Shown: piece by piece, positions 1 through 2,352 of the stretch
Layout: each line of letters opens with the position of its first letter
How positions within the stretch are numbered: the stretch's first letter is position 1
The notes under the pieces: generated by a model
Databases searched by the model: none
Told to the model about the DNA's origin: nothing
What the model saw: the letters and a program-made list of their open reading frames with translations, nothing else
IMG/VR virus record: IMGVR_UViG_2695420744_000004
Span: 1-13,324 of that record
Length of the DNA stretch: 13,324 nt
Strand: one strand, 5' to 3'
From: a virus
Lineage: Duplodnaviria; Heunggongvirae; Uroviricota; Caudoviricetes
Made by a program: the position numbers and the translations under genes

Positions 1-5
1 ACTTT

Positions 6-63
6 AAAAAGGGCGGCAGAGCAGTCACGGAGTAAAACTGATACCGCCAAACGTCACCAGAAA
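6..63 (-). ncRNA. dicF: DicF-like small RNA, 3' portion with terminator at the window edge
   Basis: The minus-strand reading of 63..1 is UUUCUGGUGACGUUUGGCGGUAUCAGUUUUACUCCGUGACUGCUCUGCCGCCCUUUUUAAAGU, which matches my recollection of the ~53-nt E. coli DicF RNA. It has GGCGG/CCGCC pairing and ends in a U-run like an intrinsic terminator. It lies at the distal end of the leftward early operon, as dicF does in Qin. Recalled, not searched. Confidence 0.6.
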
Positions 64-305
64 ATGGATAACAGAGGGCGTTGCAGCGTGGTTGTCTCTT
101 AAGCGTATGGTCAACCTGACAACCCGGTGCTCCACAGGGGGAGAAGAGTACCCCCGCCATACTTACCGCCGCGCCGTTTCGCGGATTGCCACAACCGGGA
201 GCGCACGGTCGACGAAAATTTAACGACAAGCCATCTATGAACCAGAAACCTCGCCGTGCGCTTTCGTGTTGTGTGCCTGCTTTTAACCACGTCAGGCGAG
301 GTGGT

Positions 306-334
306 ATCCTTAAAATCACCACAGTTTTAAGGAT
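306..334. promoter_or_regulatory. perfect 10-bp inverted repeat (ATCCTTAAAA / TTTTAAGGAT, 9-bp spacer) just upstream of the 345 start codon
   Basis: Arms at 306-315 and 325-334 are exact reverse complements. No U-run follows on either strand, so a protein-binding site or RNA structure is more likely than a terminator. Confidence 0.3.
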
Positions 335-344
335 TCATTAAGCA

Positions 345-665
345 ATGTCGCAACCACCAATAAATCCACTTAAGAACATGAAAATTGATTACTGGTATAA
401 AGCGCTTACAGTTGTTGGCGCTGCGTTGTTTGTCTTTAATGGAACGTCTTTTTTCGACAGATATCCCGTTGTTCCATTGGGTTTTTTGTCCTCCGGCATC
501 TTTTTTATTGGTTTGGGAGAGTGGATTAACCACCCTCTCAAAGTGAGATTTATTGGTCCTGGAGTTTGGGCTCGTGGATATAACCGTTCTTCGTGCTCAC
601 TCGGTATCATCTTCGACATACTTGGTTGTTTCCTGATTGTTACAGGAGTCGTCAAGTTCTTCTGA
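345..665 (+). CDS. small integral membrane protein (about three hydrophobic helices), possibly superinfection-exclusion-like given its sieB-like position
   Basis: 106-aa ORF with three hydrophobic stretches (ALTVVGAALFVF, VVPLGFLSSGIFFIGLGEW, SLGIIFDILGCFLIVTGVV). It is on the opposite strand to the flanking leftward early genes, as sieB is in Rac. Function is inferred from position only. Confidence 0.5.
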   Translation: MSQPPINPLKNMKIDYWYKALTVVGAALFVFNGTSFFDRYPVVPLGFLSSGIFFIGLGEWINHPLKVRFIGPGVWARGYNRSSCSLGIIFDILGCFLIVTGVVKFF

Positions 666-902
666 TGTAAAACCGCAAATGGGGCACGTAACGGGAATTT
701 TGAAAAGCGTTTCTCCGGGTTCCAGAACAAAATTTTCTGCGGTCTGATTTTGCTTCTCATATTTGTGCTCCGCGTCATTGTGAGAGCACATTCTTATTCT
801 GAGTGCCTGTTTAAACTCACTGAAGCTGAGAGCTTCTTCGCCTTCGGCAAGGCCTTCGAAGTATTCTTCGTAAGCCTTTTCCATGATTGTGTCGAAATCC
901 AT
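597..902 (-). CDS. hypothetical early-left protein (101 aa, acidic N-terminus, C-terminal CPICG motif)
   Basis: ATG at 902 sits one nucleotide after the upstream gene's stop (TGAtATG) with an AGGTGA Shine-Dalgarno inside that gene's end, indicating translational coupling. The 3' end overlaps the convergent membrane-protein ORF by 69 nt. Confidence 0.45.
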   Translation of the reverse strand: MDFDTIMEKAYEEYFEGLAEGEEALSFSEFKQALRIRMCSHNDAEHKYEKQNQTAENFVLEPGETLFKIPVTCPICGFTSEELDDSCNNQETTKYVEDDTE

Positions 903-903
903 A

Positions 904-1059
904 TCACTCACCTGAGTTTCTTTCCAGCCAGCGACGGGCACCATTTTCGGTTTTAAACGTTTTGCTTTTGGTATACGTCATCGCGGTGAACGTACCGTCC
1001 TGGTTGGGGAACACGCCACATACCAGAGATTCGTTGTTGCCAAGATCGATAGTATCCAT
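904..1059 (-). CDS. small prophage early protein, YdaF/YdfA-like (51 aa)
   Basis: Internal ATG at 1059 preceded by GAGGT; product MDTIDLGNNESLVCGVFPNQDGTFTAMTYTKSKTFKTENGARRWLERNSGE. It is the first gene after the PL-like promoter. An alternative in-frame start at 1140 would give 78 aa. The family call is recalled with moderate certainty. Confidence 0.5.
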   Translation of the reverse strand: MDTIDLGNNESLVCGVFPNQDGTFTAMTYTKSKTFKTENGARRWLERNSGE

Positions 1060-1238
1060 GCTGACCTCATTTCCCCTTAACGCCGGGGTAGCGGAACAAA
1101 AACCTGCTGCATAGTTATTAAAGTTGAACCCTGCCGTCATGTTCTTACGCCTCGGGCTGGCTACTTAACCCCTGACCACTGCCTGGTAACTCGAAGTATT
1201 GCCTGGCGTTCTGTGGGGCGGGGTGGGTTGATGAAATA

Positions 1239-1279
1239 ATGATGCACTTTTAAAGTTATGATGTCAACACTTATAAAGT
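1239..1279 (-). promoter_or_regulatory. PL-like leftward promoter with two operator repeats
   Basis: On the minus strand: -35 TTGACA (1267-1262), 17-bp spacer, -10 CATCAT (1244-1239). Operator-like ACTTTTAAAGT (1246-1256) lies in the spacer and ACTTATAAAGT (1269-1279) just upstream, 23 bp apart. The first is the exact reverse complement of the site in the PR spacer (2308-2318). Confidence 0.45.
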
Positions 1280-1291
1280 TAGCTTTTGATC

Positions 1292-1319
1292 AATAAAAAC
1301 CGCCTCGTGTGAAGCGGTT
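1292..1319 (-). terminator. intrinsic terminator downstream of the parE-like gene
   Basis: Minus-strand RNA AACCGCUUC-ACAC-GAGGCGGUU followed by UUUAUUG: 9-bp stem (one G-U), 4-nt loop, U-rich tail, about 17 nt after the toxin stop. Confidence 0.6.
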
Positions 1320-1335
1320 CTGCGAAAAAAGAGGA

Positions 1336-1617
1336 TTATCCAGGAAATTGTCGTCTGGAGTGGGTGACACTTACTATTTCAACACTCGAAGCGGCTACAC
1401 GGTACAGAATGATATAGTTAGGATGAGCTACAATCTCACGCAAGCCAAACGCTCTGTCGCTTGATGGGTATAAGTACGGATGTTCAGATAAAGCTAAAAC
1501 ACATGTCTCAATGCGAATCTTTAGCCTGCGTGCGGCATGGAGATTTTCTTTTGCAATATAGGCTACGATCTGACGTAAATCATCACGTGCAGAAGGTAGC
1601 CATAAAATGGGCAGCAT
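1336..1617 (-). CDS. parE: ParE/RelE-superfamily type II toxin (93 aa)
   Basis: Small basic protein with the typical toxin size. Its start overlaps the stop of the upstream antitoxin ORF. It resembles the ParE2 toxin of the paaR2-paaA2-parE2 system described in E. coli O157 prophages (recalled). Confidence 0.8.
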   Translation of the reverse strand: MLPILWLPSARDDLRQIVAYIAKENLHAARRLKIRIETCVLALSEHPYLYPSSDRAFGLREIVAHPNYIILYRVAASSVEIVSVTHSRRQFPG

Positions 1618-1808
1618 TACACACTCCCGCTAGTCGCAGCAATTTGGGCAATGAGATTTTCCATTTCTGCCATTACATCATCATGAGGAATTGCAGGGCG
1701 CGGATCTGCAAGATTTGCAGCTACTTTTGCACGTAGCCATTCGTTGTAATTATTTTCTTGCTCAACGGTTTCAAACTCAGAAACCATCGGCGAAAGGGCA
1801 GTGTTCAT
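1617..1808 (-). CDS. paaA: PaaA-like antitoxin (63 aa)
   Basis: Start chosen at the internal ATG (1808) preceded by AGGAGG; product MNTALSPMVSEFETVEQENNYNEWLRAKVAANLADPRPAIPHDDVMAEMENLIAQIAATSGSV. Size and sequence match my recollection of the 63-aa PaaA2 antitoxin. Coupled to the downstream toxin. Confidence 0.75.
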   Translation of the reverse strand: MNTALSPMVSEFETVEQENNYNEWLRAKVAANLADPRPAIPHDDVMAEMENLIAQIAATSGSV

Positions 1809-1837: not shown

Positions 1838-2245
1838 CTATGCTCGGTGCCCTTTCTGGGCAGCGAGCCATCTTGCAACAGTGCGCTCCATTGATTCTTT
1901 TTTGTCTTTCATGTCTTTAAGCATTTTTTCTTGATCTTCCTCTGGAAATGCTCCGAATGTTTGAAGCAGTTCCATTTGCCTGGGGCCTATTTTCATAGTA
2001 TCTGGCACCACAACCTGCTCTTCTTCGTTTGGCGGTAACATAAACCAATATGGGGGATAACCCGTTACTTCAGAAAGTTTATCAAGATTAGCTGTTGATG
2101 GACTTGTGATTCCGTGAACCCACTTTTGTACCGATTGCTGGGCAACACCAATCCTGCGGGCTAGTTCTGCCTGCTTAAGTCCTGTTTTTTCCAGTACCAA
2201 TTTTATTCGGTACGTGGTTATTTCAAGGGTGGTCATTCGCTTCAT
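1838..2245 (-). CDS. paaR: HTH (XRE/CI-type) repressor, PaaR-like; first gene of the three-gene operon and in the cI position of the switch
   Basis: HTH motif GLKQAELARRIGVAQQSVQKWVHG. Divergent from the Cro-like gene across an operator-bearing 107-bp region. There is no obvious S24 peptidase domain (135 aa only). The first codon lies about 7 nt downstream of a TAAAAT -10, suggesting a leaderless mRNA. Confidence 0.7.
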   Translation of the reverse strand: MKRMTTLEITTYRIKLVLEKTGLKQAELARRIGVAQQSVQKWVHGITSPSTANLDKLSEVTGYPPYWFMLPPNEEEQVVVPDTMKIGPRQMELLQTFGAFPEEDQEKMLKDMKDKKESMERTVARWLAAQKGHRA

Positions 2246-2352
2246 GCATTCATTTTACATAAAAAAAGTGTAACTAGCACAATCAGCTTAAAGGTGTTGA
2301 TAAACTAACTTTAAAAGTGTATAAATCATGGTGATTCACTGGAGATAACGAT
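2246..2352. promoter_or_regulatory. divergent promoter/operator region (PR-like, and a PRM-like promoter for the repressor)
   Basis: Plus strand: -35 TTGATA (2297-2302), 17-bp spacer, -10 TATAAA (2320-2325) preceded by TG, and GGAGA Shine-Dalgarno 8 nt before ATG 2353. Three AAAG(G)TGT repeats at about 2265, 2290 and 2313, roughly 23-25 bp apart (OR1-3 analogues). Minus strand: TAAAAT at 2257-2252. Confidence 0.6.

Follow-up and report, generated by a model that had tools for sequence, protein, structure and literature searches.

DicF and a likely structured leader in the early-left operon of an Escherichia coli lambdoid prophage

The left end of the window (here the whole stretch of 13,324 nucleotides of viral DNA that was analysed) carries a repressor gene, a leftward operon and, at the extreme edge, a small RNA locus, all on the minus strand (Table 1). 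The repressor, a DicA-like short HTH protein, has the same length as DicA of K-12 and is 28% identical to it over 109 aa. Genes for an antitoxin and a toxin follow, in the place that rexAB occupies in lambda. As read from the sequence, the hairpin directly 3ʹ of the toxin gene would stop the repressor/toxin-antitoxin transcript ahead of the leftward promoter; the terminator scan omitted this hairpin, probably because its loop as read is 10 nt and the scan took loops of 3-8. Two copies of a 14-bp operator overlap the leftward promoter-like site, and a third, exact copy lies in the divergent intergenic region beside the repressor gene. The 14-mer occurs three times in the window against 0.12 expected, and none of 200 shuffles reached three.

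The operon opens with ydfA and a remnant of ydfB, after which about 500 bp that K-12 Qin does not have stand in for the 3ʹ end of ydfB, the whole of ydfC and part of the leader; ydfC was not found in the window by tblastn. This insert was found in 806 of 5426 E. coli genomes. Its ORF (345..665, plus strand) codes for a membrane-like product of 106 aa and is convergent with the operon; homologues were found in phage mEp390 (39%) and as gp33 of Bcep176 (45%), and a match was found neither in Pfam nor in PHROG. A homologue of the K-12 antirepressor Rem was not found in the window by tblastn, and two ORFs beside hok loci (90 aa and 135 aa), considered as candidates for Rem, were unrelated to it.

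Table 1. Features at the left end of the window, listed from the left edge inwards
Feature	Position	Strand	Basis
U-run of intrinsic terminator	6..10	minus	sequence; same in K-12
DicF sRNA, 53 nt	11..63 (5ʹ end 63, 3ʹ end 11)	minus	RF00039, 76.7 bits; 53/53 against b1574
Terminator hairpin within DicF	12..48	minus	MFE and centroid fold of 63..1, -15.9 kcal/mol; Rfam consensus structure agrees
Spacer between element and DicF, 16 nt	64..79	minus	K-12 alignment
Conserved four-helix RNA element, 116 nt, body of the 190-nt DicF precursor	80..195	minus	covariation, RNAalifold, own CM
Element helices P1; H1; P2	195..188/87..80; 184..180/173..169; 168..165/128..125	minus	
Element helices H2; H3; H3b	156..152/141..137; 124..118/96..90; 117..114/104..101	minus	
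Long hairpin GCGCACGGCGA ... UCGACCGUGCGC	201..261	minus	fold of JMF1 precursor; ~93% identity to K-12
Insert of ~500 bp, missing from K-12 Qin	290..800		alignment breakpoints
ydfB remnant, first 34 codons, 100% identical to K-12 YdfB	801..902	minus	tblastn; PGAP pseudogene in JMF1
ydfA (DUF1391), first gene of the leftward operon	904..1059	minus	Pfam PF07151, E 8.7e-29; PGAP
Leftward promoter-like site: TTGACA (1267..1262), 17-nt spacer, CATCAT (1244..1239)	1239..1281	minus	promoter scan, 10/12
Operator copies, 14 bp: TAACTTTATAAGTG; TAACTTTAAAAGTG	1281..1268; 1258..1245	minus	repeat search; overlap sigma-70-like promoter
Terminator-like hairpin and U-run directly 3ʹ of toxin gene	1295..1319	minus	read from sequence
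ParE/RelE-family toxin	1617..1336	minus	Pfam PF05016 and PF21217 for the toxin-antitoxin pair; PGAP
PaaA2/RelB-type antitoxin	1808..1617	minus	Pfam PF05016 and PF21217 for the toxin-antitoxin pair; PGAP
DicA-like short HTH repressor, 135-aa ORF	1838..2245 (PGAP start 2236)	minus	Pfam HTH_3; PHROG transcriptional regulators
Third exact operator copy, 14 bp	2306..2319	plus	divergent repressor/cro-like intergenic region

DicF is a prophage sRNA, known since 1989-1990, that blocks cell division of E. coli by silencing ftsZ. The original prediction had recognized it at the edge of the window, and the letters quoted there, UUUCUGGUGACGUUUGGCGGUAUCAGUUUUACUCCGUGACUGCUCUGCCGCCC, are exactly those of 63..11 on the minus strand, followed by UUUUU (10..6) and AAAGU (5..1). 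The covariance search that it proposed was carried out with cmscan and Rfam 15. RF00039 matched at 62..11 of the minus strand with 76.7 bits, well over the gathering score of 48, with E 7.5e-16, covering model positions 1-52 of 52 and containing no non-canonical pairs. All 53 nt are identical to the ncRNA gene dicF (b1574) of E. coli K-12 MG1655 (NC_000913.3 1649382-1649434). Covariance-model score, type sequence and 3ʹ hairpin with U-run all place the RNA in the DicF family. Taken alone, DicF has a fold-stability z of -1.39, and its terminator is absent from the list of the generic terminator scan, probably because the stem is bulged. The 53-nt RNA and the U-run fit entirely within the window; the 72-nt isoform described for K-12 would reach about 9 nt past the left edge.

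The hairpin might in principle resemble DicF by chance or be unrelated to it. The shortness of the RNA, and nothing more, speaks for such a coincidence, which the E value, the 53/53 identity and the syntenic leader and neighbours already refute; we give it a negligible probability. The RNA had also been described as antisense to the annotated strand. It is indeed on the minus strand, but no credible gene was found opposite to it, and DicF acts in trans. The statement that an ORF-only view misses DicF was borne out: most RefSeq records with the same DNA annotate nothing under the match, a few have a "hypothetical protein", and no ncRNA is listed in the nearest genomes.

With DicF, the direction and reach of the early-left operon are settled, so that dicB is expected past the edge of the window; inside the window, tblastn with DicB gave no match. 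The left 3 kb matched two genomes at 99.9% (three mismatches in JMF1), and in both of them dicB (62 aa) begins 165 nt beyond window position 1. The earlier expectation of a dicB-like gene further along the leftward operon therefore holds. The spacing from DicF to dicB is 175 nt in these genomes, the same as in K-12, and dicB is followed by ydfD (a pseudogene), an exonuclease gene, xis and int. The locus thus has the position expected in a dicBF-type operon, with ydfA, the ydfB remnant and the DicA-like repressor with its operators in the window and dicB in the near-identical genomes.

The dicF locus of K-12 Qin has the same 53 nt, hairpin and U-run, with ydfA and ydfB upstream as here, and a leader of about 210 nt that is about 93% identical to that of the window, RNase III hairpin included. 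The immunity regions differ: the repressor shares only 28% identity with DicA, the operators and the promoter are unrelated, and in the window the ParE/PaaA2-type pair separates the repressor gene from the operon promoter. The two loci also differ in the truncated ydfB and in the replacement of ydfC by the insert with its convergent ORF. The prophage of the window retains replication, nin-region and Q genes and looks less decayed than Qin. Of 5426 complete E. coli genomes, 4105 contain DNA comprising DicF and its leader, with up to seven copies per genome; O157:H7 strains Sakai and EDL933 are known to have multiple copies (PMC5069750). DicF copies in other E. coli prophages, those of O157:H7 included, are the same sRNA, and only their mosaic context differs. 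We concluded that 63..11 of the minus strand is almost certainly a genuine dicF gene and part of the early-left operon carried by an E. coli lambdoid prophage, judged by its sequence and surroundings. As a finding, DicF at this locus is correct but already known.

For the identical RNA of K-12, repression of ftsZ has been shown experimentally and the pairing with ftsZ has been validated genetically (PMC5069750). By reading, 11 of the 12 positions of DicF nt 25-36 (window 39..28) are complementary to ftsZ -12..-1, with one G.U, and the pairing bases sit in the apical loop and on the 5ʹ side of the hairpin. An unconstrained RNAduplex calculation against ftsZ -60..+40 gave -38.5 kcal/mol, which is not discriminating, as 105 of 1000 shuffled DicF sequences were equally good. 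Because the duplex energy was no better than that of shuffles, the case for ftsZ pairing is built on identity with a validated RNA and on the complementarity read off. Repression of ftsZ by the DicF of this locus is thus inferred from K-12.

Processing of DicF, repression by DicA and the targets have an experimental basis in K-12 (PMC10448788, PMC5069750), and the processing sites are conserved in sequence between K-12 and the window. By this identity, the leftward promoter would be held off by the DicA-like repressor in a lysogen, and derepression would give a polycistronic RNA. The long hairpin at 261..201 is by homology the site at which RNase III generates the 190-nt species, whose 5ʹ end would lie near 200; cleavage there would leave an RNA of about 190 nt. 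In K-12, the 190-nt species accumulates stably in an RNase III-dependent manner (PMC10448788). RNase E would then cut at the 5ʹ border of DicF to give the 53-nt RNA, a site that falls by homology at the 3ʹ border of the spacer (PMC10448788, PMC5069750). The 3ʹ end would be formed by intrinsic termination at 10..6 or, on transcripts that read through to dicB, by RNase III cleavage just outside the window. Together with Hfq, the 3ʹ half of DicF (nt 25-36) would pair with the ribosome-binding site of ftsZ (-12..-1) and also with pykA, and its 5ʹ end with xylR. Translation of ftsZ, xylR and pykA would be blocked, leading to filamentation and metabolic changes.

The same locus could be read as one in which a decaying prophage has the hairpin mainly as intrinsic terminator of its early-left operon, with the DicF sequence a silent relic, owing either to permanent repression of the operon or to interruption of transcription by the insert and its convergent gene. 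The insert, however, has no minus-strand terminator-like site in the scan, and the promoter and operators are intact, the latter exactly repeated. Rearrangement of the operon relative to K-12 (ydfB truncated, ydfC replaced) would fit a relic, but this layout is kept at at least 95% identity in about 800 E. coli genomes. The ydfD pseudogene downstream in the nearest genomes and the lack of a Rem-type antirepressor in the window also point in that direction. Against them stands the absence of any substitution in 53 nt compared with K-12, although the adjoining leader has changes at about 7% of its positions, and the equally "cryptic" K-12 locus produces DicF in stationary phase (PMC10448788). 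We consider a silent relic improbable, and keep the reading of a bona fide dicF gene.

The leader just upstream of DicF is conserved and probably structured, and is less well described than DicF itself. A four-helix element of 116 nt, separated from DicF by the short spacer, makes up the body of the precursor; the 190-nt RNase III product of K-12 matches this element plus DicF almost exactly. The MAFFT alignment showed compensatory changes in 12 of the 33 pairs, and realignment to the model raised this to 13. In the proposed helices, 93-94% of cells were paired, compared with 35-56% in slid controls, and none of 500 shuffles reached the observed values. The single-sequence MFE yields the same four-helix architecture, and our own covariance model (R1, built from the element) scored 139 bits at 195..80 in the window. 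The helices are variable and the unpaired stretches conserved; all element sequences were gathered with a pattern that fixes two of these stretches, so the conservation of those two is partly circular. For the 195-nt precursor, fold stability did not stand out from that of shuffled sequences (z = -0.48) and was uninformative.

Rfam was scanned permissively with the left 1.3 kb of the window and with six related loci, and the element fell into no family. A tRNA or tmRNA was considered because the element has a cloverleaf-like four-way junction, and was rejected, as ARAGORN reported 0 genes and no Rfam match appeared at E up to 1. The element is likely to be a genuine structured RNA.

The element is not confined to prophages with DicF. 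Lambdoid, P1/P7-like and Pasteurellaceae phages and several genera of Enterobacterales conserve it with compensatory changes, at or close to the start of early operons under repressor control. It occurs in Stx2c phages and phage 2H10 without canonical DicF and is also present in cdtI, and the pattern scan found it in several genera of Enterobacterales. Four annotated records show its place: in P1 and P7 it comes directly after the C1-controlled ban promoter, and in phage 2H10 and Actinobacillus phage pPE4 it stands first in the early-left operon, downstream of the repressor gene. The P1 "dicF-like region" (misc_feature 68791-68892, NC_005856), like its P7 counterpart, belongs to the leader of the ban operon, which C1 controls. 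P1 and P7 share the structured element of the window (74-81% identity, 92-99 bits with our model), followed by a terminator hairpin. Their hairpin has a different sequence, however, GCCCAUCUUCGGGUGGGC, for which the Rfam DicF model did not reach E 0.01, and the phage is not lambdoid. A hairpin with a U-run was present within 260 nt downstream of the element in all 85 evaluable unique downstream sequences. As a measure of whether divergent hairpins retain pairing with ftsZ, the longest complementary run between variant DicF-like hairpins and the E. coli ftsZ leader was not discriminating; among these hairpins, only L040 (AGUUUCUCUCC, 11 nt, 3% of shuffles) stood out.

Six of 23 genome-contig pattern matches were discarded as chance matches in G+C-rich coding DNA; they came from MAGs labelled Alphaproteobacteria, Mycobacterium, Erythrobacter and Actinomycetota and from Dryocola and Enterobacter. 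Matches in MAGs labelled Veillonella, Collinsella and Bacillota were E. coli- or P1-like sequence, probably from bin contamination.

In a further reading, compatible with DicF acting in trans, the functional unit would be a module of about 190 nt (element 195..80, spacer and DicF hairpin) and the element would act in cis on transcription, in the manner of a processive antiterminator RNA or of an attenuator that a ligand or protein controls. It might, for example, set how much of the polymerase stops at the DicF terminator, giving the sRNA only, and how much continues to dicB and the recombination genes. The compensatory changes and pairing beyond controls, the agreement of the MFE fold, the occurrence of the element without canonical DicF, its placement after the ban promoter or at the operon head and the hairpin that always follows it argue for such a module, as does the stable 190-nt product of K-12 (PMC10448788). 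On the other hand, fold stability does not exceed that of shuffles, no convincing alternative pairing between element and terminator was found, and the element is about 1 kb from the promoter, in the window and in K-12, rather than adjoining it. A scaffold for processing or stability is just as plausible a role for the element, and the collection by pattern weakens the conservation argument for two of its stretches. We regard a cis-acting module as a tentative proposal.

The put RNAs of HK022 are cis-encoded processive antiterminators of about 70 nt with two stems, present as a pair at pL and pR, and their read-through of terminators depends on the zinc-binding domain of the RNA polymerase beta' subunit. 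Like putL and putR, the element would be a structured RNA near the start of an early operon and upstream of terminators, and some short words look alike (CGAACGGCGCG and CGAAAUGGCGCG; GUUCAGGAUGAAC and GUCAGGUUGAC). It is unlike put in having 116 nt, four helices and a single copy. R1 did not match the HK022 put regions (best 8.3 bits, elsewhere), and no second copy was found in the window, its rightward side included, with the pattern at three mismatches or with the model run with filters off. An HK022-type put was thus rejected, which also counts against the module, and the likeness would be a functional analogy only. A lambda-type nut site comprises a boxA word and a short boxB hairpin, with the gene of an N-like protein downstream. 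In some relatives the element is preceded by boxA-like words (UGCUCUCUU, UGCUCUUUC), but the window has GUGCGCUCC there; no boxB-like hairpin was seen, and the first downstream genes vary by phage (dicB, kil or unknown).

By itself the DicF finding has little weight, as the RNA is in Rfam and about three in four complete E. coli genomes have it. What it shows is that a toxic regulator of cell division goes unmarked, in this prophage and in most RefSeq records, when annotation relies on ORFs. Recombination has put the same DicF module behind an immunity region unlike that of K-12, in which a toxin-antitoxin pair takes a rex-like position; because the immunity region differs, the signal that induces DicF here is probably not the Rem/DicA circuit of K-12. 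The long-known and unexplained 190-nt precursor of DicF appears as a covariation-supported structured RNA common to phages without canonical DicF, and this link makes the control of read-through from DicF to dicB a testable question. DicF may be merely the 3ʹ-terminal part of a phage RNA module that is older and more widespread, with the element an undescribed cis regulator of termination, an idea that we hold as speculative. If it is true, the element would select either "sRNA only" or read-through to dicB or kil and the recombination genes.

The minus strand of 63..11 reads UUUCUGGUGACGUUUGGCGGUAUCAGUUUUACUCCGUGACUGCUCUGCCGCCC and continues with UUUUU (10..6) and AAAGU (5..1), just as quoted in the original prediction, which had recognised here the sRNA DicF. 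When the entire window was scanned with Rfam 15 at the gathering threshold, three matches were obtained: DicF and two sok antitoxin RNAs further right. The DicF model (RF00039) matched the minus strand at 62..11 with 76.7 bits against a gathering threshold of 48 (E 7.5e-16), covering model positions 1-52 of 52 with no non-canonical pairs, and a permissive Rfam scan of 1..1340 returned this same match and no other credible one. The RNA is identical over 53 bases to the annotated dicF ncRNA of K-12 MG1655 (b1574, NC_000913.3 1649382-1649434). Folded alone, it formed a hairpin at RNA positions 16-52 (window 48..12; -15.9 kcal/mol; MFE and centroid structures the same) with the U-run next to it. 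Because the z-score of this fold against shuffles was only -1.39, the assignment draws on the match to the model and on sequence identity rather than on the stability of the fold; together these two bear out the identity as DicF. The 53-nt RNA and its terminator lie wholly inside the window, and a K-12-type 72-nt isoform would end about 9 nt beyond its left edge.

In K-12, DicA represses transcription from dicBp, a promoter upstream of ydfA; a 190-nt species requires RNase III and the 53-nt species RNase E, and both accumulate in stationary phase (PMC10448788). The 3' end of K-12 DicF is formed by Rho-independent termination (53 nt) or, for the 72-nt form, when RNase III processes the full-length mRNA. 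DicF is bound by Hfq and represses ftsZ and pykA with its 3' part and xylR with its 5' end, the ftsZ pairing being backed by compensatory mutations (PMC5069750). Repression, processing, 3' end formation and target mechanism at the present locus would follow from its identity with the K-12 RNA. For a 190-nt species with its 3' end at 11, the 5' end would lie near 200, where the 3' arm of a long hairpin at 261..201 (GCGCACGGCGA ... UCGACCGUGCGC) has its base; this hairpin was present in the predicted fold of the precursor from JMF1, a strain near-identical to the left 3 kb of the window. In that fold, a stem of about 26 bp starts with the window's last two bases and is paired with the region just before dicB; the 3' end of the 72-nt isoform would fall there. 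By reading, DicF nt 25-36 (AGUUUUACUCCG) can be set against ftsZ -12..-1 (CGGAGAGAAACU) with 11 of 12 positions paired, one of these pairs being G.U, covering the Shine-Dalgarno sequence. The unconstrained duplex energy was no better than that of shuffles (105 of 1000 as good), so this calculation was given no weight.

The window is the early region of a lambdoid E. coli prophage. Its left 3 kb matched eight complete genomes at 99.8-99.9%, two of which matched the entire window at 99.1% over 87%, and isolated phages contained mosaic pieces matching at about 90%. The layout is shared with lambda, namely a cI-like gene, accessory genes in the rex position, a terminator, OL/pL and an early-left operon. 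The stretch from the repressor gene to the leftward promoter, where lambda has rexAB, holds a toxin-antitoxin pair. The 14-bp word TAACTTTAWAAGTG had three exact matches in the window against 0.12 expected, a number reached in 0 of 200 shuffles, and the three copies are likely operators of the DicA-like repressor.

Features of the DicF locus and its surroundings (window coordinates, except for the related loci in the last row)
Feature	Position	Strand	Remark
HTH repressor, 135 aa	2245..1838	-	Pfam HTH_3; length as DicA; 28% identity to DicA
PaaA2/RelB-type antitoxin	1808..1617	-	
ParE/RelE-type toxin	1617..1336	-	
Terminator-like hairpin and U-run	1319..1295	-	read from sequence
Promoter-like site	TTGACA 1267..1262, CATCAT 1244..1239	-	17-nt spacer; 10/12 positions, promoter scan
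14-bp word TAACTTTATAAGTG	1281..1268	-	adjoins -35 hexamer
14-bp word TAACTTTAAAAGTG	1258..1245	-	inside promoter spacer
Third exact 14-bp copy	2306..2319	+	between repressor gene and divergent Cro/YdaS-like gene
ydfA	1059..904	-	
ydfB', first 34 codons	902..801	-	
Insert, ~500 bp	~800..290		between ydfB' and leader, in place of ydfC; absent from K-12
ORF, 106 aa	345..665	+	three hydrophobic stretches; convergent with dicBF-type operon
Leader before DicF	~275 to 64	-	~93% identity to sequence preceding K-12 dicF
Helix P1	195..188 / 87..80	-	
Helix H1	184..180 / 173..169	-	
Helix P2	168..165 / 128..125	-	
Helix H2	156..152 / 141..137	-	
Helix H3	124..118 / 96..90	-	
Helix H3b	117..114 / 104..101	-	
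Relatives of the 195..80 element	L007 2483-2614; L011 3005-3135; L012 1183-1311; L013 2487-2621		also in L140, L153, L156, L157

The repressor is only distantly related to DicA of K-12, and the K-12 dicA/dicC operators are unrelated to the 14-bp copies. Homology to the K-12 prophage Qin begins no more than about 20 nt ahead of the ribosome-binding site of ydfA, and the promoter, operators and intergenic region of K-12 are unrelated to those of the window, indicating that the DicF module was recombined behind a different immunity region. The K-12 operon is induced by the antirepressor Rem acting against DicA; no Rem homologue is encoded in the window.

DNA at least 95% identical to the insert was found in 806 of 5426 E. 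coli genomes, where it is mostly unannotated. Its 106-aa ORF had no match in Pfam or PHROG, and homologues were found in phage mEp390 (39% identity) and as gp33 of Burkholderia phage Bcep176 (45% identity). An overlapping minus-strand ORF looks spurious, and no terminator-like site was found on the minus strand of the insert. In two Shigella flexneri variants (L061 5217-5347 and L145 1450-1580), the right end of the insert is fused straight to helix H1, and a deletion has removed the RNase III hairpin together with the 5' strand of helix P1, making them natural 'P1-less' pre-DicF elements.

At the right of the window, a tandem duplication of about 1.73 kb with 92-93% identity (8312-10046 and 10047-11780, ends approximate) gives two hok/sok type I toxin-antitoxin loci, whose sok RNAs lie at 8348-8523 and 10083-10258 (Rfam, 112 and 120 bits). 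A DUF968/YdfU-like ORF is full after the second copy (10850-11905) and shorter after the first (9121-9834). The closest genomes, covering 87% of the window, have only one copy of the repeat.

No dicB was found in the window by tblastn. In JMF1, which differs from the window at three positions over the left 3 kb, dicB (62 aa) starts 165 nt past window position 1, that is, 175 nt after the DicF 3' end, the same spacing as in K-12. It is followed by ydfD (pseudogene), an exonuclease gene, xis and int, which adjoins potC; 23CRST047, another strain near-identical to the left 3 kb, has the same arrangement. Support for the proposed continuation of the leftward operon to a dicB-like gene thus comes from these relatives and not from the window.

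DicF with its leader (280 nt) was present in 4105 of 5426 complete E. coli genomes, at up to seven places per genome, and mostly no annotation lay under the match, in line with the remark that an ORF-only view misses this RNA. DicF has an Rfam family and an entry in the K-12 annotation, and work on it goes back to 1989-1990, so the finding is correct and already known. Both the original observation and its interpretation were right, the object being a well-known sRNA in a common mosaic context. A 73-bp stretch of Aeromonas phage AP1 (MT713136.1, 254 kb; 249906-249978) matches DicF and 10 nt of flank at either end with 97% identity; genuine transfer or contamination of the assembly could account for it.

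The leader extends beyond the coordinates of the original prediction. Searched by itself with a sensitive method, it proved to be conserved without DicF, with identities of about 81-82% in Stx2c phages, phage cdtI and phage 2H10, 85% in Actinobacillus phage pPE4, 81% in P7, 76% in Salmonella phage F1055 and 74.5% in P1. The genomic position of the 116-nt four-helix element at 195..80, just 5' of DicF, was checked in four annotated records (P1, P7, 2H10 and pPE4). In P1 and P7 it lies about 50 nt after the C1-controlled ban promoter, in the ban leader, and a 'dicF-like region' of the P1 record overlaps it. In 2H10 and pPE4 it lies about 350 and 330 nt downstream of the repressor gene, so that it heads the early-left operon. 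Pattern scans found it in at least 120 viral contigs and in genomes of Escherichia, Shigella, Citrobacter, Serratia symbiotica, Trabulsiella, Erwinia tracheiphila and Izhakiella; six G+C-rich matches were discarded as chance.

From an alignment of 34 sequences, no pair more than about 97.5% alike, most helices were predicted by RNAalifold, and the closing helix P1 was added by eye. Standard pairs filled 93.2% of cells in the MAFFT alignment and 94.3% after realignment to our own covariance model, the realigned figures being biased towards structure by construction, and 35-56% in both alignments when the 3' partners were moved by 1-3 columns. Changes on both sides occurred in 12 of 33 pairs (shuffled mean 4.5) in the MAFFT alignment and 13 of 33 in the realigned one; for either, 0 of 500 shuffles attained the observed pair values. 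Helix H3 shows compensatory changes (E. coli GGGUUGUC/GACAACCC, Izhakiella GGGUAACC/GGUUACCC, Citrobacter GGAUUGUC/GGCAAUCC, P1 GUUGCC/GGCAAC). The single-sequence MFE structure of 200..6 had the same architecture plus the DicF hairpin, at an unremarkable energy (z = -0.48). Almost no variation is seen in the long unpaired stretches, GGUAAGUAUGGC and the 21-nt H3 loop AGGUUGACCAUACGCYURAGU; this is partly circular, because the search pattern fixed parts of them. A hairpin with a U-run followed within 260 nt in all 85 evaluable unique downstream sequences, the first usually 36-100 nt away. In 2H10, the Stx2c phage, P1, P7, F1055 and pPE4, the downstream hairpin did not reach E 0.01 with the Rfam DicF model, and the element matched no Rfam family. 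Our model scored 139 bits at the element and found no second copy in the window.

As for known RNAs, ARAGORN found no tRNA or tmRNA in the window, and our model gave no match to the put regions (putL/putR) of HK022, located by the numbering of PMC9378689. In four related loci (L140, L153, L156 and L157, from Serratia symbiotica, Trabulsiella, Erwinia tracheiphila and Izhakiella), the DicF-like hairpin, 60-120 nt after the element, is much longer and encloses AGGAG then AUGUUCUACCG...; the terminator stem appears to sequester a ribosome-binding site and a start codon, and this may put the first downstream gene under translational control. Adjacent matches to C4 antisense RNA (80-83 bits) and isrK (55-60 bits) at L011 549-737 and L010 1050-1238 belong to phage 2H10 and the Stx2c phage, on the far side of their immunity regions, and pPE4 and P7 had sub-threshold STnc100 matches downstream of the DicF-like region.

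From these results we concluded that the element is a genuine RNA, conserved and structured, which forms the body of the known 190-nt DicF precursor; its structure and termination were not discussed in a 2023 study of the operon. Of the whole locus, only this upstream element might merit more study. Its placement, ahead of a terminator and where repressor-controlled operons begin, suggests that it controls read-through, and a role as a processing or stability scaffold fits equally well.
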